30,014 bases of DNA from an uncultured Bacteroidia bacterium. GTDB lineage: Bacteria; Bacteroidota; Bacteroidia; J057. The notes below the pieces were generated by a model. It worked only from the letters and a program-made list of their open reading frames with translations, searched no databases and was not told the DNA's origin. This document shows, one piece after another, positions 4,802 through 18,395 of the stretch. The stretch is from positions 1 through 30,014 of the forward strand of contig CAYVAP010000003.1 of the NCBI GenBank assembly GCA_964449365.1, written 5' to 3'. The first letter of the stretch is position 1. Each line of letters opens with the position of its first letter. The translations under genes and the position numbers were made by a program.

Positions 4802-4809
4802 TATATTTG
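4802..4809 (+). promoter_or_regulatory. Putative Bacteroidota sigma-A -7 element (TATATTTG) upstream of the glycan cluster
   Basis: Exact match to TAnnTTTG in the short divergent intergenic region. No clear -33 TTG at canonical spacing. Confidence 0.5.
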
Positions 4810-4814
4810 TGTGT

Positions 4815-5840
4815 ATGATCAAAAAAGTACTTCCAACCAGGTGGGAAAAAAGGCTGAGGCGCAGCCTGAACATGCAGGTCGAACCTGACCCGGTGGAGTT
4901 TCCAGCCCCGCTTTTTATTACCGGGTGTATGCGGAGTGGAACCTCGGTGTTGGTGGAAAAGCTTTGTCGACATCCGCAGTTGCTGCGCATGGGCATGGAA
5001 CTGAACGATATCTGGACGACCATCGGGGGTGCTTCCTGCAAAAGGGTTTGTGAGCACAAAACAGAAGATGATGTCAGCAGCGAAGCCACCGCCAACATGG
5101 TGGCGTACATGACGCGATATATCGAGCTGGCCCAGCGCCCACAGCGTTATTTGATGCGAATTCGCAATCGGTATCTGAGTGGTGGCAACTCAGTGTTCAA
5201 AGATTTTGATCGGATCATCCCTGTCAACAAATCTCCGCATTTGATGAACAAGCTGCGCTATGTGCATGGGATGTTTCCGCAGGCCAAATTCGTCTTTATC
5301 ATCCGCTCAATCGAGGGACACAGTGCGAGCATCAAAGCGTTTTTTGATCGAGAGTATCAACGGACAGGCCTAAAAAACTATTTTCCTAGGGACGACCAAG
5401 GCTGCTATGCGCGCTTTTATCCTTGGCAAAAGGTGCGCAGGGCCGATCTTGACCGCTGCTACCCGGGTGATTTTTCTATCATCCCAGAGATGTGGATTCG
5501 CCTCAATGCCCTCGCTCTGGAGGAGCTTCAACAGCTCCCACCTGACCAGGTAATGATCGTTTCCTACGAAGATTTTATTACCCGGCAGGTGGAAACCCTG
5601 CGAGATGTGTTTGCCTTTATCGATACCGATCCTCGCCACCGCGCCAAGACTCAGAAGATCATCCACGCGCCCATGAAGGTGTTCAACACCACGACCAAAG
5701 GAAATCCCCTGGACAAGTGGCGACGAATGCTGTCTGATGATGAGCTAAAGGTGATTGAGTCGGTGAAAGCGCGGTATCCTGGCTGGCTGGGCTACATCCA
5801 TCGGCAGTTGGCGGCGCGAGAGGTCCCTCATTACATTTAA
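4815..5840 (+). CDS. Sulfotransferase family protein (PAPS-dependent, Sulfotransfer_3-like)
   Basis: 5'-PSB loop 'FITGCMRSGTSVL', 'VNKSPH', 'KFVFIIRS' and 'VSYEDF'. The start is uncertain (GTG 4809, ATG 4815 or ATG 4872). Confidence 0.85.
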   Translation: MIKKVLPTRWEKRLRRSLNMQVEPDPVEFPAPLFITGCMRSGTSVLVEKLCRHPQLLRMGMELNDIWTTIGGASCKRVCEHKTEDDVSSEATANMVAYMTRYIELAQRPQRYLMRIRNRYLSGGNSVFKDFDRIIPVNKSPHLMNKLRYVHGMFPQAKFVFIIRSIEGHSASIKAFFDREYQRTGLKNYFPRDDQGCYARFYPWQKVRRADLDRCYPGDFSIIPEMWIRLNALALEELQQLPPDQVMIVSYEDFITRQVETLRDVFAFIDTDPRHRAKTQKIIHAPMKVFNTTTKGNPLDKWRRMLSDDELKVIESVKARYPGWLGYIHRQLAAREVPHYI

Positions 5841-6016: not shown

Positions 6017-7273
6017 TTGTATTTGACTTTCAGCTCGTTGTACAAGCTCAAGCTCATCTGGCAAAAAAATCTCCTGCGGTTGGAAATCGTATGGCGTACC
6101 ATTGTCGATTGGTTGCAATATTATCTAGCGCCCACTCGGGAATTGCGTCCGTCCAATTTGGAGCGCCCGGTGGTCCTCTTCCTGGGAGAAATGCTGCAGG
6201 CCCGCATCCCGCGCTTGGCCAAGTGGCTCAAGCGCAGTGGCGAGATAGACTGCATTTTGCTGGTCAAGGAAGGAAAGGCTTTTGAAGTGTTTGACACTGA
6301 AGCATTTTCTGAACGGTGGACCTACCGTAGCCGCTGGCATCTGCGCAAGCTGCTAAAAGGGCTCCGAGATATTCATGTGATCCACGCTTTTTCTATGCCG
6401 AGCTACCAGATTCGGTTGGCCATTACCATGACTTCTATCCCCGTAGTGATGGACATTCAGGACATGGCGGTGAGCTACTTTGGGCTGAATAGCCCCAAGC
6501 TGTATATGCGGCTGGACATGCCAGACGAGTCTTTTTCCATCAAAAGGGCCGATGGCATTGTATCGCAGAGCATCGAGCTGGTGAATGCCTGCCAAGAATA
6601 CGAGATCAAGCAACGACCGCCTACCCTGATGTTTCCGGTTTACTGTGACGACGATCAATTGCTGACCCCGGAGGAAGTGCCTTCCATGGGCGAGATTCAC
6701 CTGGTATACGCTGGTAGTATCGCGGGGTCTTTTCAAGAGGATGCCAATTTTGGTAGTATGAAACTCTTTCGGCTGATTGATACCTTTACTCAGCAGCGTA
6801 TTCATTTTCATATCTACCCCTCGCCCACCATGCGTTTTCGTGATCTGATCCTAGCGGAGTACCAAGCTCTCTCGGATTGGTATGAGTATTTTCACTTGCA
6901 TGAATCCGTGCCTCAGAAGGTGTTGGCCGAAGAACTGACCCGCTACCATTTTGGGCTGTTACCCTTTTTTTTATCGGATACCTCCCGCTCTGCCCACAAG
7001 TTGGGTCGCGGGAGCAGTCAAAAGCTATATAACTATATTGAGTCAGGGCTTCCAGTAATCATCTCGCGAGATCTGACTTTTCAGAGTTGGATGGCCAGCC
7101 GATACCGAGCCGGCATTCCCATCGACAAGCCTGACCTTGCACACTTGCGCGAGATGATCGAGGGGATCGATTATGCTGCGTTTAGGCAGAATTTGTTGCA
7201 GCAACGCGAGAAAATCCTTCTTAGTCAGCACATCCCTCGTTTGTTGGCTTTTTACCACCAAATCCAGCCCTGA
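6017..7273 (+). CDS. GT-B fold glycosyltransferase (GT4-like)
   Basis: 418 aa. C-terminal 'LVYAGSI', 'YHFGLLPF' and 'KLYNYIESGLPVIIS' resemble the GT4 'KL.EY...GLPVI' signature. The TTG start is uncertain. Confidence 0.75.
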   Translation: MYLTFSSLYKLKLIWQKNLLRLEIVWRTIVDWLQYYLAPTRELRPSNLERPVVLFLGEMLQARIPRLAKWLKRSGEIDCILLVKEGKAFEVFDTEAFSERWTYRSRWHLRKLLKGLRDIHVIHAFSMPSYQIRLAITMTSIPVVMDIQDMAVSYFGLNSPKLYMRLDMPDESFSIKRADGIVSQSIELVNACQEYEIKQRPPTLMFPVYCDDDQLLTPEEVPSMGEIHLVYAGSIAGSFQEDANFGSMKLFRLIDTFTQQRIHFHIYPSPTMRFRDLILAEYQALSDWYEYFHLHESVPQKVLAEELTRYHFGLLPFFLSDTSRSAHKLGRGSSQKLYNYIESGLPVIISRDLTFQSWMASRYRAGIPIDKPDLAHLREMIEGIDYAAFRQNLLQQREKILLSQHIPRLLAFYHQIQP

Positions 7274-7363: not shown

Positions 7364-8155
7364 ATGTCTGTCACATCTCCCACTCTGCTAGGTATTGTCT
7401 GGTGGCCTCACTCCGGAGGACGTTGGCTGTGCCGAAGTCTGATCAAGCCACACAAGCAGGTATATGAGACAGCATTCGTGCATCCCTGGTTGTTTTTTTC
7501 CACTGACATGACTATGGAGGTGGACATTACCGCCCAGGTACACAAAGCACGCTCTATGCCCGACCTGAAGGAACACTTGGTGGCGCTGAAGGGTAGCATC
7601 GATCACGGACGGATTGAGGGCTTGCGTGCGTATTTTCATCGCATTCGCCAACACTACTTAGCCACAGATGCACCCGAAACGGTCATTGCTGGGGAGATGT
7701 GTTTAGGCTCGCCCATCCCACGCGCCATTGATCTGACTGCGCTGTTTGAGGCCGTGCCAGATTTTCGCTTGCTGCACTTGGTACGTAATCCCGTGCATAG
7801 CTTTCCCTCTTTTGCGGTACGCCATGAGATGGATGGCGACCCGGTCAAGGTGGCAGGCAGTTGGCTGACCCTCAACGCACAGATCCGCGTGTTTTTTGAG
7901 CAGCACCCGGATTTGCGCCAGCAGTACCTGATGGTGCGTTATGAGGACTTGATACAGCAGCCCGAAGCAGAGCTGGCCCGCATTTTTGCCTTTGCGGGCT
8001 TACCCAACGCGTCCGAGGTAATAGCCAACCAAGGCGAGCGCTGGGGGCGCAACACCCGCCCGGAGGTGTCGCCGCAGTTGCGTACCCTGATCGAAACCAT
8101 TGCAGGGCCTGAACTGCAACGCCATGGTTACGCCCTCTCCGCGCAGGTGTCCTGA
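7364..8155 (+). CDS. Sulfotransferase-fold protein with a non-canonical PAPS-binding loop
   Basis: 263 aa. The 3'-PB-like 'LLHLVRNPVHSFPS' and 'VRYEDLIQQPEAELARIFAFAGL' are typical of sulfotransferases, but the N-terminal loop reads 'WWPHSGGRWL'. Confidence 0.72.
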   Translation: MSVTSPTLLGIVWWPHSGGRWLCRSLIKPHKQVYETAFVHPWLFFSTDMTMEVDITAQVHKARSMPDLKEHLVALKGSIDHGRIEGLRAYFHRIRQHYLATDAPETVIAGEMCLGSPIPRAIDLTALFEAVPDFRLLHLVRNPVHSFPSFAVRHEMDGDPVKVAGSWLTLNAQIRVFFEQHPDLRQQYLMVRYEDLIQQPEAELARIFAFAGLPNASEVIANQGERWGRNTRPEVSPQLRTLIETIAGPELQRHGYALSAQVS

Positions 8156-8209: not shown

Positions 8210-9205
8210 ATGTCTAATTCGCTTTTTTCTCGTGTGTATGTGACCGGCGGGGCTGGCTACGTAGGGGCGGTCTTGGTGCCCAAGCTGCTCAATGTCGGCT
8301 ACGCTGTCACCGTCCTGGATCTGATGATCTATGGCGAGGACGTACTGCCCGAACATCCGCAACTGACCAAGGTCAAAGGCGACATCCGCGATCGGGATTT
8401 GCTCCAGCAGACCATTCCCGGCCACGATGCCCTCATCCACTTGGCCTGCATCAGCAACGACCCGAGCTTCGATCTCAACCCTGAATTGGGAAAAAGCATC
8501 AACCTCGATGCCTTCGAGCCGATGGTGCAGGTTGCGAAAGAAGCTGGAGTAAAGCGTTTCATCTACGCCTCCTCCTCCAGTGTGTATGGTATCAAAGATG
8601 AGCCCAATGTAACCGAAGACATGAGCCTGGAGCCACTCACGGATTACTCCAAGTTCAAGGCCATGTGTGAGGAGATCCTGGCCAAGTATCAGAGTCCCGA
8701 TTTCACTACGGTGACCATCCGTCCTTCCACGGTGTGTGGTTATTCGCCGCGTCAGCGCCTGGATCTGGTGGTCAACATCCTCACCAACCTAGCCATCAAC
8801 AAAGGCGAGATCACCGTCTTTGGCGGTACCCAAAAGCGCCCCAATCTTCACATCGAAGACATGACCGACCTATACCTGCTACTGCTGGAGCTGCCCGATG
8901 AGAAGGTCGCTGGCAAGGTGTACAATGCGGGCTATGAAAATCACCCGGTGGCCGAGCTAGCCGAGATCGTGAAAAAAGAGGTCGGCCCGCAAGTAAAGAT
9001 CTCTACCTCACCCACCGACGACCTGCGTAGCTACCACGTATCTTCGCAAAAGATCAAAGAAGAGCTAGGCTTCGAAGCCAAGCACACCATTGACCAGGCG
9101 GTAGCTGACCTCAAAAAAGCTTTCGAAGCAGGAAAGTTGCCCGAGTCTCTGGCCGATCCCAAATATTTCAACGTCAAGCTGATGCAGCTGATCGAGTTGA
9201 AGTAA
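8210..9205 (+). CDS. NAD-dependent epimerase/dehydratase (extended SDR)
   Basis: VTGGAGYVG, HLA, YASSSSVYG, catalytic YSKFK and 'GYSPRQRLDLVVN'. Confidence 0.92.
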   Translation: MSNSLFSRVYVTGGAGYVGAVLVPKLLNVGYAVTVLDLMIYGEDVLPEHPQLTKVKGDIRDRDLLQQTIPGHDALIHLACISNDPSFDLNPELGKSINLDAFEPMVQVAKEAGVKRFIYASSSSVYGIKDEPNVTEDMSLEPLTDYSKFKAMCEEILAKYQSPDFTTVTIRPSTVCGYSPRQRLDLVVNILTNLAINKGEITVFGGTQKRPNLHIEDMTDLYLLLLELPDEKVAGKVYNAGYENHPVAELAEIVKKEVGPQVKISTSPTDDLRSYHVSSQKIKEELGFEAKHTIDQAVADLKKAFEAGKLPESLADPKYFNVKLMQLIELK

Positions 9206-9229: not shown

Positions 9230-10066
9230 ATGAACCCTTCTGACGTAAAAGAACATCAGCCTCTTCCGTTCGATCGCGAGACCATGCTGGCGCAGATCCG
9301 GGAGCGTAGGGACTTTTTCCTGAACAACGTCCGGATTTTGCGGCAGCGCGATCCCAATGATCATTACTGGCGAAATTTCGACGATCTATCGCAGCAGGAG
9401 CGGGACGGGCAGCTATTCGAAACCGGCATGGTACAAATCTGGATCGGTAGTCATTTGCGCCCTAAGCGTATTCTGGAAATCGGCACCCGCACGGGAGGCT
9501 CCTTGGTCAACCTGCTCTCCCCCTACTGCCGCTCTGATCTGGAAGAGGTAAAGGTGGTGTCTTTCGACCTGTGGCGCGAGTATTTTAGCGTGACCTGGTT
9601 CTCCCGCCTGCTGACGCGTCTGAAATACGGCCCTCAGGCAGGGCCCGGCTCGCAGATAAACATCTCACGCCGCTATATGCAGTACTTCGATGGCCTGATC
9701 CAGACCTTGGCTACTGGCAAAGTGAAGCGCAACCTGCGCCATTTCAATTTGCCGACCCACTCGTTGCTCTTCATCTCGGGCGATTCGAAGCAGACGGTGC
9801 CTGCCTATTTCAAGCGTCATCCCGAAGCTACTTTCGATTATGTATTGGTGGACGGGGCACACGATGAAGAAACGGCGCTTATCGACTTGGAAAACGTTGC
9901 GCCTTATGTAGCCCCAGGCGGGGTACTGGTGTTCGATGACATCGGCCCCGAGAGCTATCGCCTGGGCGGGGTCTGGGATGCGTTCAAAGCTAAGCATAAG
10001 AACGAATTTGCCTTCGTCGAAGTTTACCACCGCAAAGGGGTGGCTTGGGCGTTTCGACGTGCTTAG
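9230..10066 (+). CDS. Class I SAM-dependent methyltransferase (Methyltransf_24-like)
   Basis: 'ILEIGTRTGGS' motif I, 'FDYVLVDGAH' and 'PGGVLVFDD'. Confidence 0.85.
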   Translation: MNPSDVKEHQPLPFDRETMLAQIRERRDFFLNNVRILRQRDPNDHYWRNFDDLSQQERDGQLFETGMVQIWIGSHLRPKRILEIGTRTGGSLVNLLSPYCRSDLEEVKVVSFDLWREYFSVTWFSRLLTRLKYGPQAGPGSQINISRRYMQYFDGLIQTLATGKVKRNLRHFNLPTHSLLFISGDSKQTVPAYFKRHPEATFDYVLVDGAHDEETALIDLENVAPYVAPGGVLVFDDIGPESYRLGGVWDAFKAKHKNEFAFVEVYHRKGVAWAFRRA

Positions 10067-10147
10067 GGCCAGGCCATCGAAGAGAAGGATGAGCCAATAT
10101 GTACCCACCACAGTCAGCTATGAATGCTGATCTTATTCAATTTATCT

Positions 10148-11275
10148 ATGCCACAAACCAAACTCCGCGTACCTTACGTCGATCTGGGCGGTCAATACGG
10201 CTCAATCAAGCAGGAAGTGATGGAAGCGATCAGCCGAACCTTGGACTCGGGCTGGTTTATCTTGGGGAAAGAAGTGGAGGCTTTTGAGGCAGCCTTTGCT
10301 GAGATGCACGGTGTGCCTTACGCCGTAGGGGTGAATAGCGGCACCGACGCGCTGATCTTGGTGATGCAGGCCCTAGGCATCGGGGCTGGCGATGAGGCCA
10401 TCGTGCCGCCCAACTCATACCTGGCTTCTGCTTCGGCAGTAGCGCTGGTCGGAGCCACGCCGGTATTCGTGGATGTGGCCGAGGATTACAACCTCGACCC
10501 GGCCAAGATCGAGGCGGCTATCACCCCCCGCACCAAGGCCATCGTGGCGGTTCACTTGACGGGGCGGCCAGCCAACATGGAGGCCATCATGGCCATTGCT
10601 GACAAGCATGGCTTGCACGTGCTCGAAGACGCGGCCCAAGCCGTAGGGGCCCGCTATCAGGGGAAACCCGTGGGCTCTTTCGGTACCGCCGGCGGCTTCA
10701 GCCTGCATCCGCTCAAAAACCTCAGCGCCGCTGGCGACGGTGGCGTCATCACCACCCACGACGAGGCACTTTACCGTCGATTGCTCAAGGCCCGTACCCA
10801 CGGCCACCCCAACCGCGACGAGTGCGAGTTTTGGTCGATGAACTCGCGCCTCGACGCCTTACAGGCTGCCATTCTCAACGTGAAGATAAAGCACGTGGAA
10901 GGCTGGAACGCACGCCGCCGCGAGATCGCTGAGATCTATCAGGCGCGCATCGCTGACTATGTATGGGTGCCGCAGGACAAGCCCGGCGAATATGCTGTTT
11001 ACCACACCTTTATTGTCCAGACGGAGCAGCGTGATGCTTTGCAGCAGTATCTCAAGGAGGCTGGGGTAGATACCAAAATTCACTACCCGATTCCGATCCA
11101 CTTGCAGCAATCAGCCGCTTACCTGGGCTACCAAGAGGGGGACATGCCTGTTACGGAGCGACAGACTGAGACCATTCTGAGCCTACCCGTGTTCCCTGAG
11201 CTAAACGATGAGCAGATATACTACGTCTGCGAGGTCATCGCTGAATTTTTCGCCTCATCTGCATCGCATGACTGA
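10148..11275 (+). CDS. DegT/DnrJ/EryC1/StrS family PLP-dependent sugar aminotransferase
   Basis: 'VPYVDL', 'GVNSGTDAL', 'EDAAQA.GA', 'FSLHPLKNL..AGDGG' (PLP lysine), 'NSRLDALQAA' and 'IHYP.P.H.Q'. The start is taken at ATG 10148 (MPQTKL). Confidence 0.95.
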   Translation: MPQTKLRVPYVDLGGQYGSIKQEVMEAISRTLDSGWFILGKEVEAFEAAFAEMHGVPYAVGVNSGTDALILVMQALGIGAGDEAIVPPNSYLASASAVALVGATPVFVDVAEDYNLDPAKIEAAITPRTKAIVAVHLTGRPANMEAIMAIADKHGLHVLEDAAQAVGARYQGKPVGSFGTAGGFSLHPLKNLSAAGDGGVITTHDEALYRRLLKARTHGHPNRDECEFWSMNSRLDALQAAILNVKIKHVEGWNARRREIAEIYQARIADYVWVPQDKPGEYAVYHTFIVQTEQRDALQQYLKEAGVDTKIHYPIPIHLQQSAAYLGYQEGDMPVTERQTETILSLPVFPELNDEQIYYVCEVIAEFFASSASHD

Positions 11276-12317
11276 CTCCACCCTCTCTGCTCACCCCTTT
11301 GTGGCCGATTTTGAAGCGGCCATCCATCGCGATCGTGCGCATATTGCCTCTTGGATGGTCTCGTGGGCTTACCAAGACCAGCGTAGCCGACTGGATAAGC
11401 GCTACAACTCCACTTTCCCGCAAGATTTTTATGCTTTTTCAGGTCCGGAAGATCTGGCCCAATGGGTGAACTGGAACCTGAGTTTTCCTCATCCAGATTA
11501 TTTCCTAGATGAAACTGGGCAAGACCTGATCGAGCAAGCGGCGCAGGTAGATCTGCCTCTTTTTGGGAAAAATGGCATAGAAGTGGATTCCGATAAGTAC
11601 CGCGCGGTGCTAGGGCGGCGCAACATGCAAGACTATCGCCTGGCCCATTTCTATCCCGTGCCGGAACGCTACGAGGTTCGGTCGGTGCTGGATTTTGGGG
11701 CAGGATACGGGCGGCAGGCCAACTTGTGGACCCAGCAACCGGATATTCGCTTTCTGAGCATGGATGCCATCCCCAAGGCATACTGCCTGCAGCGTTTTTA
11801 CTACGAACAACTGGATGTGCCTCTGCGCGAGTACTGCGCCGACCCGACCCATTTTGCGATTGACGATGATCCCGGTATCTATCACCTGCCAACCTGGCGC
11901 TTTGATCTGATTCCTGATCGTTCGCTAGACCTCATTTTGTGCATCCAGGTGCTACCGGAGCTAAGCAATAAATTGGTTCGCTACCTCATTCAGCAGTTTC
12001 GACGAGTACTCAAGCCTGGTGGCGCCCTCCTTCTGCGAGACGGAGGTAGCTGGTTGCGCTGGGGGCCAGGCTTTTCGCAGCCGTCATACCTGCGTCGCCA
12101 CGGGTTTGTGCTGGAATTTTGTCCCCACACGCTACATGGCGAAGACATGCATGGAGTTACGCGCATTTGGCGCCAAACCGATCCGCGCATCTTGGCGCAA
12201 CGGCAGCGTAGCCCGAAACAACAGGCCTGGGCTTGGGCCAACTATGTTGATTCTCTCGCTGGTGGCGTGATGAGCCGTACAGCTAAACGCTTTATTTCCA
12301 AGAAATCCCCCTCATGA
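11268..12317 (+). CDS. Class I SAM-dependent methyltransferase (putative sugar O-methyltransferase)
   Basis: 'VLDFGAGYGRQA' motif I, 'LDLILCIQVLPEL' and 'RRVLKPGGALLLRD'. ATG 11268 overlaps the upstream stop (ATGACTGA), which supports this start over the track's 11208. Confidence 0.82.
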   Translation: MTDSTLSAHPFVADFEAAIHRDRAHIASWMVSWAYQDQRSRLDKRYNSTFPQDFYAFSGPEDLAQWVNWNLSFPHPDYFLDETGQDLIEQAAQVDLPLFGKNGIEVDSDKYRAVLGRRNMQDYRLAHFYPVPERYEVRSVLDFGAGYGRQANLWTQQPDIRFLSMDAIPKAYCLQRFYYEQLDVPLREYCADPTHFAIDDDPGIYHLPTWRFDLIPDRSLDLILCIQVLPELSNKLVRYLIQQFRRVLKPGGALLLRDGGSWLRWGPGFSQPSYLRRHGFVLEFCPHTLHGEDMHGVTRIWRQTDPRILAQRQRSPKQQAWAWANYVDSLAGGVMSRTAKRFISKKSPS

Positions 12318-13312
12318 AATCTCTCGTAACCGGCGGCTGTGGCTTCATCGGTAGTCATCTGGTCGACGCACTCTTAGCCCAAGGCGACGAGGTCGTGGTC
12401 TTGGACAATTTTTCCACCGGACGCCCCCAAAATCTGGACCACCAGAAAGGCCATCCCCAGCTGAGGTTGCATCAGGTGGATATCGGAGAATACGGGGCCA
12501 TCGATGGCCTCTTCGAGGGGGTTGACCGGGTGTTTCATATCGCGGCCCTAGCCGATATTGTGCCCTCCATTCAGAATCCTATTCAGTACCATCGCTCCAA
12601 CGTGGATGGTACCATCAACGTGCTGGAAGCCTCGCGCCACGCCGGGGTCAAGCGGCTGATCTACGCCGCCTCTTCGTCTTGCTATGGCATCCCCGATCAC
12701 TATCCTACGCCCGAGACGGCAGAGATTCGCCCGGAATATCCCTACGCCACCACCAAGTGGATCGGCGAGCAGTACGTGCTCAATTGGCACAAGGTCTACA
12801 AGCTGCCGACGACTTCGCTGCGCTTCTTCAACGTCTATGGGCCGCGCAGCCGCACCTCTGGTACCTATGGAGCCGTGTTTGGGGTGTTTTTGGCTCAAAA
12901 GCTCAATGGCGAACCCTACACTGTGGTGGGCGACGGCACCCAAACCCGCGACTTCACCTTCGTGACCGATGTGGCGGCGGCCTGCATCGCGGCGGCAGAA
13001 CATGACGCAGCCATCGGTGAGGTGATGAATATCGGCAGCGGTGGTACCTACAGTGTCAATCGATTGGTGGAACTGTTAGGCGGCGAAAAGACGTACATCC
13101 CCAAGCGACCGGGAGAGCCCGATTGTACCTTTGCCGATACCAGTAAGATCAAGCGCCTGATCGGGTGGGAGCCTAAGGTATCCTTCGAAGAAGGCGTAGC
13201 CAGGATGCTGGAAAACATCGACTACTGGCGCGAAGCGCCGCTGTGGACCCCCGACAAGATCGCCGAGGCCACCAAAGATTGGTTCAAATACCTCGGAGAC
13301 GAGCCAAGCTGA
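12314..13312 (+). CDS. NAD-dependent epimerase/dehydratase (extended SDR, UDP-glucose 4-epimerase-like fold)
   Basis: VTGGCGFIGSH, 'FHIAALA', 'YAASSSCYG', catalytic YATTK, 'LRFFNVYGPR' and 'GDGTQTRDF'. ATGA overlap with the upstream stop. Confidence 0.93.
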   Translation: MKSLVTGGCGFIGSHLVDALLAQGDEVVVLDNFSTGRPQNLDHQKGHPQLRLHQVDIGEYGAIDGLFEGVDRVFHIAALADIVPSIQNPIQYHRSNVDGTINVLEASRHAGVKRLIYAASSSCYGIPDHYPTPETAEIRPEYPYATTKWIGEQYVLNWHKVYKLPTTSLRFFNVYGPRSRTSGTYGAVFGVFLAQKLNGEPYTVVGDGTQTRDFTFVTDVAAACIAAAEHDAAIGEVMNIGSGGTYSVNRLVELLGGEKTYIPKRPGEPDCTFADTSKIKRLIGWEPKVSFEEGVARMLENIDYWREAPLWTPDKIAEATKDWFKYLGDEPS

Positions 13313-13353
13313 TCGATTGCTATGGCTCGATCATGGTTCCCTCACACTTGCAC

Positions 13354-14871
13354 ATGAAAGACAAAATCGTATCGCTAGAATTGCTGGCCGATCGCATCGC
13401 AGAGCTCAAAGCGCAAGGAAAAAAAGTTGCTCACTGCCATGGGTGCTTTGACCTGTTGCACCTCGGACACATCAAGCATTTTGAAGCGGCGCGCGAAGCA
13501 GCCGACGCGCTGGTGGTTACTATCACCCCGGATCACCACGTCAATAAGGGGCCCGGTCGGCCTGTTTTCAACGAGCAGATGCGCCTCGAAACCTTGGCTT
13601 CGCTGGAGGTAGTAGACTTCGTGGCCCTCAACCGCTGGCCGACGGCTATCGAATTGCTCAAGCTCGTCAAGCCGACCTACTACGTCAAGGGGCAGGACTA
13701 CCGCGACTTTGGGGAGGACCTGACGGGCAACATCGCCAAAGAAGTGGCCGCAGTGCGCTCGGTGGGCGGGGATGTGTACTTCACCGACGAGGTAACCTTT
13801 TCTTCCTCCAAGCTGATCAACGAAAACTTTAGCCCTCTCAGCGAAACGGCTCAGGAGTTCCTCTACCAGTTCAAGGAAAAACACAGCCCTGATGATATCA
13901 TTGCGCAGATCGAGTCGCTCTCTGAGGTACGGGTGCTGGTGATCGGGGATACCATCATCGATGAGTATCACTACGTACACCCGCTGGGAAAATCATCAAA
14001 GTCGCCGACCTTGTCGACCAAGTTTCACCGGGCGCAGAACTTCGCGGGCGGGGTGTTGGCCATCGCCAATCACTTAAACGAATTTGCCGGAAAGGCCGAA
14101 ATGATCTCTGTCCTGGGCCGCGAAAATGATCAGATAGAGGTGATCGCGCCCAACTTACACACCGACATCGAGACGCGTTTTTTTTACCGTGAGGATGGGC
14201 CTACCCCCACCAAGCGTCGCTACCTGACGCAGTTTCAGAACAGCAAGATTTTTGAAGTCACCTTTATGAATGATCAATATCTCCCCCCTGAGGTAGAGGA
14301 TCAGATCATTCAGTATCTAGAGAGCCGCTTACCCGAGCTAGATGTGGTGATGATCGCGGATTTTGGGCATGGGTTGATCACGCCGCGTATCCAGCAATTT
14401 TTGGCTGAAGCGGACATCTTCGTAGCCGTGAATGCCCAGACCAATTCCAACAATTTCGGCTACAACTACATCACCAAGTACCTGGGCTGCGACTACATCT
14501 CCATCGACGAAAACGAGCTGCGGCTCCCCTTTGGTGAGCGCTATGGCGAATTGGAAACCCTGGTCCAGCGCTTGACGGATATTACTGGCTGTCAAAACGT
14601 TACGATCACTCTCGGGGGCGAAGGCGCTTTGTACTATCACGCGAAGGAGTTTTACCGGGTGCCAGCCATGGCCACCAGTGTGGTAGATTCGGTGGGGGCG
14701 GGCGATGCCGTGCTATCGGTCAGCTCGCTATTGGCCTATCAGGGATGTTCGCCTGAGATTTTGCCCTACATTGGCAATTGCGTAGGTGCACTCGCGGTGC
14801 AGATCATCGGCAACCAGCGCCCCGTTAACAAGGTTGAATTGAACAAGATGATCAGCCACATGCTTAAATAA
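13354..14871 (+). CDS. Bifunctional nucleotidyltransferase (cytidylyltransferase-like, N-terminal) / PfkB-family sugar kinase (C-terminal); HldE/RfaE-related with reversed domain order
   Basis: N-terminal 'HGCFDLLHLGHIKHF' (HxGH), 'NKGPGRP' and 'YVKGQDY'. C-terminal 'VLVIGDTIIDEY', 'DFGHG', 'ITLGGEG' and 'VDSVGAGD' (PfkB signature). The start is taken at ATG 13354 (ATG 13333 is an alternative); the track's 13243 overlaps the upstream gene. Confidence 0.88.
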   Translation: MKDKIVSLELLADRIAELKAQGKKVAHCHGCFDLLHLGHIKHFEAAREAADALVVTITPDHHVNKGPGRPVFNEQMRLETLASLEVVDFVALNRWPTAIELLKLVKPTYYVKGQDYRDFGEDLTGNIAKEVAAVRSVGGDVYFTDEVTFSSSKLINENFSPLSETAQEFLYQFKEKHSPDDIIAQIESLSEVRVLVIGDTIIDEYHYVHPLGKSSKSPTLSTKFHRAQNFAGGVLAIANHLNEFAGKAEMISVLGRENDQIEVIAPNLHTDIETRFFYREDGPTPTKRRYLTQFQNSKIFEVTFMNDQYLPPEVEDQIIQYLESRLPELDVVMIADFGHGLITPRIQQFLAEADIFVAVNAQTNSNNFGYNYITKYLGCDYISIDENELRLPFGERYGELETLVQRLTDITGCQNVTITLGGEGALYYHAKEFYRVPAMATSVVDSVGAGDAVLSVSSLLAYQGCSPEILPYIGNCVGALAVQIIGNQRPVNKVELNKMISHMLK

Positions 14872-14914
14872 TGGCGCTTCACCGCCGTTTTTTACCCGGA
14901 AAAAATCACTCCTC

Positions 14915-15556
14915 ATGCAAGAGACTCAGGCCTTCTTCCAGCGATACCTTCAAGATTTTACCGATGCGATGATGAGCATCGAAGCCAGCCAGTCAGACCA
15001 AGCCTATCTGCCCGCTAAAGCTCTGGAAGAGATCAGGCAGTGGCTGCTGCAACTGCAAGCCTCTGGCCAAAAAATCATGATCATCGGCAACGGTGGCAGT
15101 GCCGGGGTAGCTAGCCACATGGGCATCGATTTCTGGAAAAATGGGAACGTGCGCTGCCTGACCTTTAACGATGGGGCCTTGCTTACCTGTCTTTCAAACG
15201 ACTACAGCTACGAAGAAGCCTTCGCCGCAGCGGTGAACCAGTTTGGCGATCAAGGCGACCTGTTGATCGCCATCAGCAGCTCGGGTAGCTCACGCAACAT
15301 CCTCAACGCGGCTGAGCTAGCGGCGAAAAAAGGCATCCGGGTGATTACCTGCTCGGGTTTTCAGCCTGACAATCCGCTGCGCAAAATAGGAGACGTCAAT
15401 TTTTACGTCCCCTCCTTTTCTTATGGCTTCGTAGAAACCATCCATCAGCTCATCATCCATGCGATGCTCGACGTCAAGCTGTATCACGACGATCAGTTGG
15501 ATATCTTTTATCGCAACTTGCCCATGAACGCCGAAGCAGATTCCCACCCATCATAA
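14915..15556 (+). CDS. SIS-domain sugar-phosphate isomerase, GmhA (phosphoheptose isomerase)-like
   Basis: 'IIGNGGSAGVASH', 'LTCLSNDY.YE..FA', 'GDLLIAISSSG.S.NI' and 'YGFVETIH'. Substrate not established. Confidence 0.85.
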   Translation: MQETQAFFQRYLQDFTDAMMSIEASQSDQAYLPAKALEEIRQWLLQLQASGQKIMIIGNGGSAGVASHMGIDFWKNGNVRCLTFNDGALLTCLSNDYSYEEAFAAAVNQFGDQGDLLIAISSSGSSRNILNAAELAAKKGIRVITCSGFQPDNPLRKIGDVNFYVPSFSYGFVETIHQLIIHAMLDVKLYHDDQLDIFYRNLPMNAEADSHPS

Positions 15557-15607
15557 ATGGAACCTAGGGGTCGTAAGGGCTACGGGGGAGAGAGTTAAGA
15601 ACTGGAT

Positions 15608-15645
15608 AAAATAAAAAGGGACGCTTCCTAGTGGAAGTCGTCCCT
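15608..15645 (-). terminator. Intrinsic terminator for the convergent minus-strand START operon (possibly bidirectional)
   Basis: Stem agggacgcttcc (15617-15628), loop tagt, ggaag-t-cgtccct (15633-15645), preceded on + by aaaataaaa, which is the U-tract on the minus strand. Confidence 0.7.
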
Positions 15646-15724
15646 ACAGCACAACCATGAAAACACGATGTAAATCTAAGGGTCTGCAGGGACTTGTGCA
15701 AGGGCTATTCATAATTTTTTTCAA

Positions 15725-16444
15725 TTAATTGTGAGTGCTGTCCCTCTGACTGGCCGCAGGGGCATGGGGCGTGGCGGGAGTCGGCTCCTGGATATACGGT
15801 AGCCGGAGCCGCTGGTAAAAAGGAGATTCGACCCGCTCCAAAAAAAGCTTTAAGCTCTGCACCGGGCCTACGTTGATAGCTGCCCGAGTGAGCCAGGCGG
15901 GAATTGATCCACCCGCGTCGGCGAAGAGGTAATACGTGATATGAACCCGGCCCGCCTCTAGGGGGCGCACCGTCCAGCGCGAAAAGGCCTTTTGCACACG
16001 CACCACTCCCTCTATGGGAGGAAGGTACTGCGGGATCGCCCTCGCATCGAGATATACAGTCAGGGTGCGAGGGTCTTGCCGGGTGGTGGCGGCCAGCACA
16101 AAGTCTCGATCATCGAACCAAAGCGGAAAGTCGCTGCGAGTGTGATAAAGGTACTGCCCTGGCCCTTGAGTCTCGATCACCCGACTGCTCTCACAAGCAT
16201 ACACCCACTCAGAAAAATGCTCAGCATCGTTGATCACTGATACAGCCCCAGAGATGGAAGTCTCAGCCTCCAGGGTGATTTTCAACTCTGGCACCCGGCT
16301 GCTGTCGGCATAATGGTGATACACCTCGATATGATCGACTGACTTGACCAGTTCCCAAGCTCTGGTTTCAGTCTGTGCGCTTACCTGGCCGCTCAGCATG
16401 AGCGCGGCTGCGGCGAGATACCATGGCCATGGCTTACTCGGCAT
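15725..16444 (-). CDS. START domain (lipid-binding) secreted protein
   Basis: Signal peptide ending VSA|Q, followed by 'WELVK..D.IEVY', 'EWVY.C..S', 'FPLWFDDRDFV', 'W...P...G...ITY....D.GGSIPAWL' (START/polyketide cyclase-like fold). Confidence 0.85.
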   Translation of the reverse strand: MPSKPWPWYLAAAALMLSGQVSAQTETRAWELVKSVDHIEVYHHYADSSRVPELKITLEAETSISGAVSVINDAEHFSEWVYACESSRVIETQGPGQYLYHTRSDFPLWFDDRDFVLAATTRQDPRTLTVYLDARAIPQYLPPIEGVVRVQKAFSRWTVRPLEAGRVHITYYLFADAGGSIPAWLTRAAINVGPVQSLKLFLERVESPFYQRLRLPYIQEPTPATPHAPAASQRDSTHN

Positions 16445-16799
16445 GCTTGCTCTCTTGAGTCTGTGAAGTGGTGGCGCTCTCTGCTTCTGGCTGCTGCTCG
16501 ACCCGCACGAACAACTCGCGCCCTTCGCCGATGTCGATCACCTCACCGAATGCATCTCGCGCGCCGCTATAAAACTCCTGCGCGATCGACTTGGGAACGA
16601 ATATCCGCAACTCGTTGGCCATCAACGTCACGTGCATCCGCTCATAGGAATGGCTGTGCTGCAGGGCGTACACCAGCTTGTCGCCAAAAGATTCGCCGAA
16701 GGTCACGGCTTCTTCTACTTCTCCATGTTCAGAAAAGCGTTTGACATCATCTGCATCGCAGCGGACGAGAATCTGATTGGTTTCGAGGATCAGACGCAT
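16434..16799 (-). CDS. Conserved hypothetical protein (DUF7009-like)
   Basis: 'MRL....N....R....DV..F.E.G.V.E...FG......L.Y.L' pattern recalled from a small conserved family. Its stop overlaps the START gene's start by 11 bp. The start is taken at ATG 16799. Confidence 0.55.
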   Translation of the reverse strand: MRLILETNQILVRCDADDVKRFSEHGEVEEAVTFGESFGDKLVYALQHSHSYERMHVTLMANELRIFVPKSIAQEFYSGARDAFGEVIDIGEGRELFVRVEQQPEAESATTSQTQESKHAE

Positions 16800-17060
16800 A
16801 AGTTGAAAAGGTTGGTAGCGTGGTGACATCATCAATTTCCTTCACAAGGTAGCCAAAAACCCGTAGACCCCAGGGAGATTTCTGGATAAGACGAGAGGTT
16901 ATTTATTGTTGAGTTAAAATATTACATTGTTATAGGCGGCTGCTGTGCCACTCAGCGGATATCATTCGAAATCTTGCGCTGAGCGAAGCCAAAGGGTGAG
17001 CAACTCGATATGCCTTGCCTAAAGCAGCGAAGTTATGTATCATGCCGACCAAAAATCGTG

Positions 17061-18395
17061 ATGCCAATGCGTCTGTTTTTAGGGTTGATGATGGGGCTGC
17101 TGATCAGCCTGATTGTGTGGGCCTGCACCGCTACCTCTGGGTCGGGCTATCAGAATGGTTCTCGTTACCAGGAGCGTCCCGCTATGCTGTACCAGGACTA
17201 CATTTATCGTCGCAATGTGCGAGCGGTGCAGTTTTATCGCGGGCCCTACGATGAGTCGTACCCCGTACTGTATCTCAGTCAAAGTAGCGATCGGCTGATC
17301 TTGGAGTTCGATGAGCTATTGCCTGAGACCGAGCGAGAAACGGATTTTTTCGTAGATATTATCAGTTGTACGGCAGATTGGGAGCCGAGCGGGGTGCTGC
17401 CTATCGAGTTTTACCAAGGCTTTACCAGCCACCGCATCGACGAGTTTCAGCGCTCCAATTTCACCAAAATCCCCTACGTCCATTACACCTATGCCTTCCC
17501 GCGAGAGGATGAGGGATTTAAGCGCAGTGGCAACTACCTGCTCAAGGTCTATCGCAACAATAATCCCGAAGATGTGGTCATCACCCGGCGGTTTGTGGTG
17601 GTAGATCGGCGCATTCGGGTGCAGTCCAAGTACGAGCTTTCGGCTCGCGTCGAGCGGCAGGAGTTTCGTAGCTTTTCTTTCGTCGTATTTTATCAGGGAA
17701 TGAACCTCTTCGATCCCAGTACGGATCTGCGGGTGCAGGTGCTACAAAACTTCCGTTGGGACAATGCCCTGCGGCTGAGTCGCCCTCGCTTCATGAACGA
17801 TGCATCGATGGAGTATTTCGTCGACGTAAATGAAGCCTATCAGAGCGGACAGGAGTTTCGGTTTCATGGCATCGAGAGTGTCCGCCTGCTCAGCCGCTCG
17901 GTGCAGGACGTGGAGGAGCGCGAAGACCTTACCGACATCTACCTCTTCCCCGACAAGGTCATTCAGCGAAACGAGGTCAGCAGCCCGCGCGACCGCAATG
18001 GGAGCTTTACCATTCGCGTCGACGAATTTCAGCAAAACGACCTTCAAGCCGACTATATCCAAAACTTCTTCTTCCTAAAGCGCAGTCGCCCCTTTGGCGA
18101 TGGCGCGCGGGTCTATCTTTTCGGCGAATTTACAGACTGGCACTGCCTCCCCGACTACGAGATGACCTGGGACAGTACCTATCAGCGCTACATGGGGCGG
18201 GCCCTGCTCAAGCAAGGGGTCTATGACTATCAATACGTGATCAAGCGCCCAGATCAGGAGTTGCCGGATCCGACCCCCATCGAAGGCACTCGCCGCCTGA
18301 CGGAGAATTTCTACACTATCATGGTCTACTTTCGTCCCCCAGGCGAGCGATCAGATCTTTTGATTGGCTATCAGCCGATCAATTATCTTGAGTAG
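17061..18395 (+). CDS. DUF5103 domain protein / type IX secretion system plug-like protein
   Basis: Lipobox-like 'IVWA|C'. Motifs 'L.LEFD.L', 'C.ADW.PS', 'T...Y.HY...FP', 'SGNYLLKVY', 'RFVV', 'V.QN.RWDN', 'GEFTDW' and 'LLKQGVYDYQY', 'TEN.Y...VY.RP.G.R.D.LIG' are as recalled for DUF5103 proteins. Start ATG 17061 or 17067. Confidence 0.75.
   Translation: MPMRLFLGLMMGLLISLIVWACTATSGSGYQNGSRYQERPAMLYQDYIYRRNVRAVQFYRGPYDESYPVLYLSQSSDRLILEFDELLPETERETDFFVDIISCTADWEPSGVLPIEFYQGFTSHRIDEFQRSNFTKIPYVHYTYAFPREDEGFKRSGNYLLKVYRNNNPEDVVITRRFVVVDRRIRVQSKYELSARVERQEFRSFSFVVFYQGMNLFDPSTDLRVQVLQNFRWDNALRLSRPRFMNDASMEYFVDVNEAYQSGQEFRFHGIESVRLLSRSVQDVEEREDLTDIYLFPDKVIQRNEVSSPRDRNGSFTIRVDEFQQNDLQADYIQNFFFLKRSRPFGDGARVYLFGEFTDWHCLPDYEMTWDSTYQRYMGRALLKQGVYDYQYVIKRPDQELPDPTPIEGTRRLTENFYTIMVYFRPPGERSDLLIGYQPINYLE

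Follow-up and report, generated by a model that had tools for sequence, protein, structure and literature searches.

Results

The NTkin and SIS genes

The stretch of DNA analyzed here (the window, 30,014 nucleotides from contig CAYVAP010000003.1 of an uncultured Bacteroidia bacterium, assembly GCA_964449365.1) carries two adjacent forward-strand genes that recall the heptose pathway. The first (13354..14871) encodes a 505-aa, HldE-like fusion of a nucleotidyltransferase and a PfkB kinase in reversed order (here called NTkin), recognized by its Pfam matches (PF01467 and PF00294), its NCBIfam matches and an AlphaFold2 (AF2) model. The second (14915..15556), which follows after a 43-nt gap (14872-14914), encodes a divergent GmhA-like SIS isomerase of 213 aa (here called SIS), recognized by its match to TIGR00441 and by alignment. 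An alternative start for NTkin, 21 nt upstream at 13333, corresponds to the 512-aa gene call P0001; homologues begin at MKDK (position 13354), which favors the 505-aa form.

The nucleotidyltransferase domain of NTkin spans 13399..13821 (TIGR02199 match and alignment) and the PfkB kinase domain spans 13909..14853 (TIGR02198 match, alignment and Foldseek similarity to the HldA structure 4e84), both on the forward strand; in residue numbers, the Pfam matches run from 29 to 154 for CTP_transf_like (PF01467) and from 194 to 490 for PfkB (PF00294). When NTkin was compared with Escherichia coli HldE by BLASTP, residues 5-133 aligned with HldE 322-448 (34% identity) and residues 194-500 with HldE 13-312 (22% identity). 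Because the N- and C-terminal matches to E. coli HldE are swapped, the domain order is truly reversed, and a sequence-only reading of this DNA, which had placed the nucleotidyltransferase at the N terminus and the kinase at the C terminus, was correct on this point.

Among the NCBIfam models, the two halves of HldE ranked first for NTkin, and GmhA for SIS, by a wide margin. The rfaE_dom_II (HldC) model TIGR02199 gave 105 to 108 bits (cut-off, 181.5; TagD, 27.5), and the rfaE_dom_I (HldA) model TIGR02198 gave 121 to 122 bits (cut-off, 345; next PfkB family, 46). The full-length HldE model (NF008454), whose kinase-first, adenylyltransferase-second order NTkin does not have, gave 152.4 bits, well below its cut-off of 521. 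The AF2 model of NTkin (pLDDT 94.4, pTM 0.82) led to the same neighborhood; in Foldseek searches its kinase domain best matched HldA (4e84; E value of ca. 1e-25, TM score 0.86), with ribokinases at 1e-18, and the top seven matches were all Burkholderia cenocepacia HldA (TM scores of 0.80 to 0.86, by target). Foldseek searches of the Swiss-Prot models and the AFDB clusters returned kinase-domain matches only (TM score by query of at most 0.59) and nothing that matched NTkin over its full length in this domain order; the Swiss-Prot matches were the kinase domains of HldE and HldA only.

Catalytic and substrate motifs of NTkin

The nucleotidyltransferase domain retains the HxGH, KGPGRP and FSSS motifs. 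HxGH is present as HLGH at residues 36-39, with H36 and G38 invariant and H39 conserved in at least 90% of 81 aligned sequences. The PfkB domain likewise retains the GG and GAGD motifs; G232 is invariant, G233 is conserved in at least 90%, and D445, G448, G450 and D451 are invariant or nearly so.

The residues that would line the substrates are a different matter. The HldC motifs TNG, NSD, ExTP and (F/L)xxGxSTT are not kept, NTkin having CHG, TPD, WPTA and DEVTFSSS in their place, and these changes are conserved across its family. At the last of them, where the sequence-only reading had noticed VTFSSSKLI instead of the usual G.STT, alignment gives the family pattern [DE]-x-x-x-[FYH]-S-S-[ST], so that the substitution is a property of the family. 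The [FI]SS[ST] motif is itself generic to the nucleotidyltransferase superfamily. In the kinase domain, NTkin has GKSSKSPT, ADFGHG and NAQTNSNN instead of three stretches (ISPEAPVP, SDYxKG and DPKG) common to E. coli HldE and to the HldA of the window's own bacterial family.

Docking predicts that the TNG, NSD and ExTP motifs of HldC contact heptose-1-phosphate and that the Phe of FxxGxSTT stacks on adenine (PMC7993394). At the position of that Phe most aligned members of the NTkin family have an acidic residue, which is D in the window, and the motif has lost its Gly. According to commentaries on the work of Tang et al. 2024 (PMC11461863), the residue preceding the STT motif (R5) is linked to nucleoside triphosphate promiscuity; this position is aromatic in the NTkin family (F, Y or H), which is only suggestive as regards nucleotide preference. 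NTkin may use a non-adenine nucleotide, as the sequence-only reading had suggested, given the loss of the predicted adenine-stacking Phe (PMC7993394).

A divergent GmhA-like isomerase

SIS is 31% identical to E. coli GmhA and scores 93 bits against the gmhA model TIGR00441, below the cut-off of 209.45. Alignment bore out the difference at its signature loop to which the sequence-only reading had drawn attention, SIS having GNGGSAGVASH against the GNGGSAADAQH of canonical GmhA from its own bacterial family. SIS retains the GNGGS loop and a Ser-rich phosphate loop (SSSGSS). At His61, Glu65, Gln172 and His180 of E. coli GmhA, which we take to be the zinc-binding and catalytic positions, SIS has H, D, E and H, a set that is chemically compatible with the canonical one but not identical to it, and six residues after position 67 (E. 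coli numbering) are deleted. In the alignment, the E65-to-D and Q172-to-E changes, the six-residue deletion and the kept motifs are all conserved in the SIS subfamily.

SIS is the sole GmhA-like gene that we found in the source genome (G000), and canonical gmhA was likewise not found in two genomes of the same genus that are 97 to 98% complete. Orthologues of SIS (52 to 65% identity) occur in 14 of the 15 NTkin-bearing genomes of the same bacterial family and also in six genomes of that family that lack NTkin (G307, G308, G309, G312, G346 and G352). HldA is present in five of these six, and HldA or HldC in all of them. Among the family's genomes with HldA or HldC, canonical GmhA is lacking only in these six SIS carriers and in G341, an 80%-complete assembly in which neither form was found; conversely, the divergent SIS was found in none of the 25 family genomes that have canonical GmhA and lack NTkin, although these counts come from related genomes and should be read as a pattern rather than as a statistic. 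Since several genomes with HldA or HldC have no GmhA-like gene other than SIS, it is probably a true sedoheptulose-7-phosphate isomerase.

Canonical heptose genes and the phosphatase

The source genome also encodes an ordinary set of genes for ADP-L-glycero-D-manno-heptose: HldC on contig C155 (209.6 bits; cut-off, 181.5), HldA on C438 (355.6 bits; cut-off, 345), HldD on C917 (374.9 bits; cut-off, 274.6), a GT9-type glycosyltransferase of the heptosyltransferase family on C442, and a GmhB-like phosphatase. These are scattered as single, unlinked genes; a search of the same genome for HddA found none. With E. coli HldE, its HldA shares 41% identity and its HldC 47%, against the 22% and 34% of the kinase and nucleotidyltransferase domains of NTkin. 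HldA, HldC and a GmhB-like gene were each found in 43 to 45 of 52 genomes of the same bacterial family. We therefore reject the idea, put forward from the sequence alone, of a heptose pathway in an unexpected lineage; with HldA, HldC and HldD of the source genome all above their NCBIfam cut-offs, and with GT9 beside them, heptose genes are at home in this lineage.

Every family genome that carries NTkin has canonical HldA and HldC as well (15 of 15, the HldA matches being fragmentary in two), and so have all five of the distant carriers examined, which are at least 97% complete. In one relative, which lacks NTkin (G307:C70:10335-11270), the canonical HldA gene contains an in-frame TGA, which may be a sequencing error or mark a pseudogene. 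In some relatives, canonical gmhA lies within an hddA-gmhA-hddC-gmhB operon of the GDP-alpha-heptose type (L067, G320:C2:711500-715500; L070, G334), and those that combine this operon with HldA/HldC and NTkin hold three predicted heptose-activation sets.

No HAD phosphatase had been noticed in the window, and a tblastn search of its 30 kb with five GmhB-type HAD queries likewise returned no match. A candidate for the unlinked phosphatase that had been suggested is a GmhB-like HAD-IIIA gene on contig C776. It scores below the cut-offs of both relevant models (98.6 bits for TIGR00213, cut-off 149.6; 130.5 bits for NF006506, cut-off 178); its identity is 48% with GmhB from the hddA-gmhA-hddC-gmhB operon of a relative and 35% with the E. 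coli enzyme. Elsewhere in the NTkin family the association is closer. One member (P0153) is a HAD-IIIA(GmhB-like)-nucleotidyltransferase-PfkB fusion, with GmhB as the best match of its HAD domain (147.6 bits), and another (P0134) is a nucleotidyltransferase-PfkB-SIS fusion whose SIS domain is 46% identical to that of the window, so that these two fusions join all four pathway activities within the family. GmhB-like genes also lie 2 to 4 kb from NTkin at two loci, L076 (41 to 46% identical to E. coli GmhB) and L040, and genome G189 has a second GmhB-like copy within its NTkin cluster. The L076 locus (10531-17536 of a 333-kb metagenome contig) further contains several radical-SAM/SPASM genes and two DegT genes around NTkin, SIS and GmhB.

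Size and distribution of the NTkin family

A word-indexed search with NTkin gave more than 5000 matches, the best 120 of which all had the same architecture and came mostly from Bacteroidota metagenome-assembled genomes; their names were generic ("PfkB family carbohydrate kinase" or "rfaE ... nucleotidyltransferase chain/domain"), and some sources label family members "bifunctional ADP-heptose synthase." An exhaustive search of representatives at 50% identity yielded 1284 proteins (E value of at most 1e-30). Among the best 150 of these, nearly all were collinear with NTkin over its whole length, nine matched in two stretches, and a few were fragments. Members occur also in Sumerlaeota and Patescibacteria. 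The distribution is patchy: NTkin was present in 15 of the 52 genomes of the window's own bacterial family and in neither of two of its own genus, and across the phylum 8 genomes of a sample of 301 had it (at most 35% identity).

Gene cluster around NTkin and SIS

NTkin and SIS are the last two of ten same-strand genes whose spacing ranges from -68 to 176 nt. The cluster opens with a sulfotransferase (4809..5840), followed by a GT4/Gtf3-like glycosyltransferase (6017..7273), which is the only glycosyltransferase of the cluster and was assigned by a weak GT4 match and by orthologues with PF26337 (Gtf3_C), and by a second, sulfotransferase-fold protein (7364..8155). Next come an extended short-chain dehydrogenase/reductase (SDR1, 8210..9205), a Methyltransf_24 methyltransferase (9230..10066), a DegT-family sugar aminotransferase (10124..11275; PF01041, 387 bits), a class I methyltransferase resembling sugar O-methyltransferases (11208..12317) and a second extended SDR, of the epimerase type (SDR2, 12314..13312; Pfam Epimerase). 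All are on the forward strand. From its first ATG, the class I methyltransferase overlaps the end of the DegT gene by 68 nt (11208-11275), and its true start is probably downstream. A scan for promoters and terminators gave signals at chance level only.

The best PDB match of SDR1 is 6vo6 (133.8 bits; next, 98.9), which is presumably Campylobacter jejuni Cj1427, the GDP-heptose C4-dehydrogenase. The function of Cj1427 itself has been described (PMC10680097). Among PDB entries, SDR2 best matches GalE, WbpP and UXS, and direct reading finds the sequence SSSCYG, without the Asp-Glu pair that marks 4,6-dehydratase SDRs. It always lies immediately upstream of NTkin, the relatives' copies being 76 to 88% identical and likewise adjacent. 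The best PDB matches of the DegT protein include DesV (2oga), QdtB and WbpE, presumably all sugar 3-aminotransferases.

Family-level relatives keep the order of the cluster (45 to 88% identity). More distant loci keep the core of SDR, NTkin and SIS, often with DegT, methyltransferases and a glycosyltransferase, and NTkin adjoins SIS in distant Bacteroidota, in Patescibacteria and in others. In 7 of the 10 family-level relatives whose loci were fetched, a Wzx/MATE-like flippase of ca. 495 aa lies between NTkin and SIS (e.g., L028:8478-9968); its orthologue in the source genome (40% identity) is on contig C417 (L059/L072). The pair of flippase and SIS persists in genomes without NTkin (L052 and L055). 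Downstream of SIS in the window (15725-18395) are genes for a secreted START-domain protein and a DUF7009 protein on the reverse strand, followed by one for a type IX secretion system (T9SS) plug (PorV-associated) protein on the forward strand, and another locus (L063) has T9SS cargo genes intermingled with those of the sugar cluster.

Discussion

We propose that NTkin and SIS form a second, dedicated nucleoside diphosphate (NDP)-heptose module, which would operate beside the ordinary ADP-L-glycero-D-manno-heptose pathway and feed a tailored surface sugar; this is the explanation toward which we lean. The relationship to the heptose pathway that the sequence-only reading had recognized holds up well, in that all three activities are heptose-pathway paralogues, with the HldE halves and GmhA as best hidden Markov model (HMM) matches and HldA as the closest structure to the kinase. 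As we envisage it, SIS would convert sedoheptulose-7-phosphate to D-glycero-D-manno-heptose-7-phosphate (and probably also supply canonical HldA in this organism), the C-terminal PfkB domain of NTkin would phosphorylate O-1, the unlinked GmhB-like phosphatase encoded on C776 would remove the 7-phosphate, and the N-terminal domain of NTkin would then form an NDP-heptose, with a nucleotide, and possibly a fine sugar specificity, that differ from those of HldC. The resulting separate pool may be tailored by the presumably cotranscribed SDR1, SDR2, DegT aminotransferase and two methyltransferases, a plausible chain being NDP-heptose to keto-heptose to amino-heptose, followed by methylation. The GT4/Gtf3-like enzyme would transfer the sugar, which may also be sulfated, and the Wzx-like flippase (on C417 here) would export it.

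Compared with HldE, HldA and HldC, NTkin shares both folds, the HxGH, GG and GAGD motifs and the best HMM and structural matches, and its gene is linked to one for a GmhA-like isomerase and, among relatives, to one for a GmhB-like phosphatase. It differs in its reversed order, low identity, scores below the cut-offs and replaced HldC/HldA substrate motifs, and in that it is always accompanied by canonical HldA and HldC. The heptose nucleotidyltransferases (HENases) of Tang et al. 2024 (Science 385:678) are, in the commentaries on that work (PMC11461863 and PMC11573728), of three architectures: monodomain, kinase/nucleotidyltransferase and isomerase/kinase/nucleotidyltransferase. Like the fused ones among these, NTkin is by its likeness a heptose-pathway nucleotidyltransferase joined to a partner activity, but its nucleotidyltransferase-first order is not among the three types that the commentaries list, its R5 residue is aromatic (F, Y or H), and the Gly and Phe of the motif are lost. 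SIS in turn resembles GmhA in its fold, GNGGS loop, Ser-rich phosphate loop and equivalents of His61 and His180, and apparently takes the place of canonical GmhA in several genomes, although its 31% identity to the E. coli enzyme, its 93-bit score, the substitutions at positions 65 and 172 and the six-residue deletion set it apart. The heptose remodeling of C. jejuni offers a parallel in that an NDP-heptose is oxidized and remodeled by SDRs before transfer; there, however, the heptose is activated by the GHMP kinase HddA and the guanylyltransferase HddC, and neither an aminotransferase nor a sulfotransferase takes part.

Several observations weigh against a dedicated heptose module. NTkin and SIS score far under the curated cut-offs for the families nearest to them, and both the Asn residues of HldC predicted to contact the sugar (in TNG and NSD) and the three HldA signatures are replaced in NTkin, so that its substrate could be another ketose-derived sugar. 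SDR2 and DegT resemble enzymes that act on UDP- or dTDP-sugars. The source genome is only 83% complete, and a canonical gmhA could lie in its unassembled part. SIS stays with the flippase in same-family genomes even where NTkin is missing, and the link between SIS and NTkin at this locus could therefore be partly positional. Finally, transketolase-/E1-like genes adjoin the NTkin-SIS-SDR core in Patescibacteria (L074, 12005-14054) and in another lineage (L075, 10976-12880), the latter locus having also a NUDIX gene, an inositol-monophosphatase-like gene and an S6PP-like HAD gene; these extra genes hint at C2-branching, other carbon skeletons or a dedicated precursor supply.

One alternative is simple redundancy, with NTkin as a cluster-dedicated copy that raises flux toward this glycan and makes ordinary ADP-heptose. 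The HldE halves are, after all, its closest families, its catalytic motifs are intact, the genome has a GmhB-like gene at another place, and some family members are annotated as bifunctional ADP-heptose synthases. We nevertheless think this improbable, because NTkin was never seen to replace HldA or HldC (all 20 of the carrier genomes examined keep both), in contrast to the SIS paralogue, which does seem to replace GmhA, and because the adenine-stacking Phe and sugar-contacting Asn predicted for HldC, along with the HldA signatures, are not merely lost but conserved in changed form. The changed substrate motifs and the constant coexistence together argue for a distinct nucleotide and/or sugar, and the product of NTkin is probably not plain ADP-heptose. 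Of the outcome against which the sequence-only reading had set its own proposal (a gmhB elsewhere in the genome and an ordinary ADP-heptose product), the first part is borne out by the GmhB-like gene on C776, while the second has become less likely given that HldA and HldC are always present.

We give about the same small weight to a second alternative, in which the module activates some other higher-carbon sugar derived from a ketose phosphate, for instance a branched sugar or an octose like that of the lincosamide LmbN/P/K/O route. The substrate-lining motifs do differ in all three proteins, and the transketolase-/E1-like genes at the two distant loci would fit such a route. Against this, no transketolase or transaldolase gene is present in the cluster of the window or of its family-level relatives, and SIS seems to serve as the GmhA of genomes that otherwise hold only canonical HldA and HldC as heptose genes, two enzymes that depend on heptose-7-phosphate. 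The phosphatase-free route of the sequence-only reading, in which the transferase would use a 1,7-bisphosphate to give NDP-heptose-7-phosphate or the kinase an unphosphorylated sugar, agrees with the lack of a HAD gene in the window and the family-level clusters, but we reject it as very unlikely in light of the GmhB-type HAD-IIIA domains fused to NTkin (P0153), clustered with it (L076 and L040) or duplicated inside its cluster (G189), and of the gene on C776.

Returning to a dedicated NDP-heptose module, we may tentatively extend it to the family as a whole. In this broader and more doubtful form, the nucleotidyltransferase-first enzymes would be the committed entry to widespread tailored heptoses (amino, methylated, sulfated or branched) by way of a non-ADP NDP-beta-heptose, e.g., CDP- or UDP-heptose, kept apart from the ADP-heptose of the lipopolysaccharide core, and SIS would represent a new subclass of GmhA with an Asp/Glu-type metal site.

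Our literature search found no biochemical study of a nucleotidyltransferase-first HldE-like enzyme, and NTkin is a member of a large, unstudied enzyme family. What the window adds is the Bacteroidota version of its cassette, with sulfotransferases and methyltransferases, together with the coexistence with a full canonical set of ADP-L,D-heptose genes, the pattern in which SIS seems to replace GmhA, and the fusions to HAD and SIS domains. Bacterial envelopes are built with heptose nucleotides, which the vertebrate receptor ALPK1 also recognizes as ligands. The CDP- and UDP-linked forms have been known only since 2024, and what they do in the bacteria that produce them is not yet clear (PMC11573728). 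A family that spans several phyla, comprises at least 150 collinear clusters at 50% identity, runs parallel to HldA and HldC and is wired to tailoring genes is a concrete candidate for the source and use of such alternative heptose nucleotides; if the non-ADP reading is true, it would give these recently found CDP- and UDP-heptoses a physiological role.

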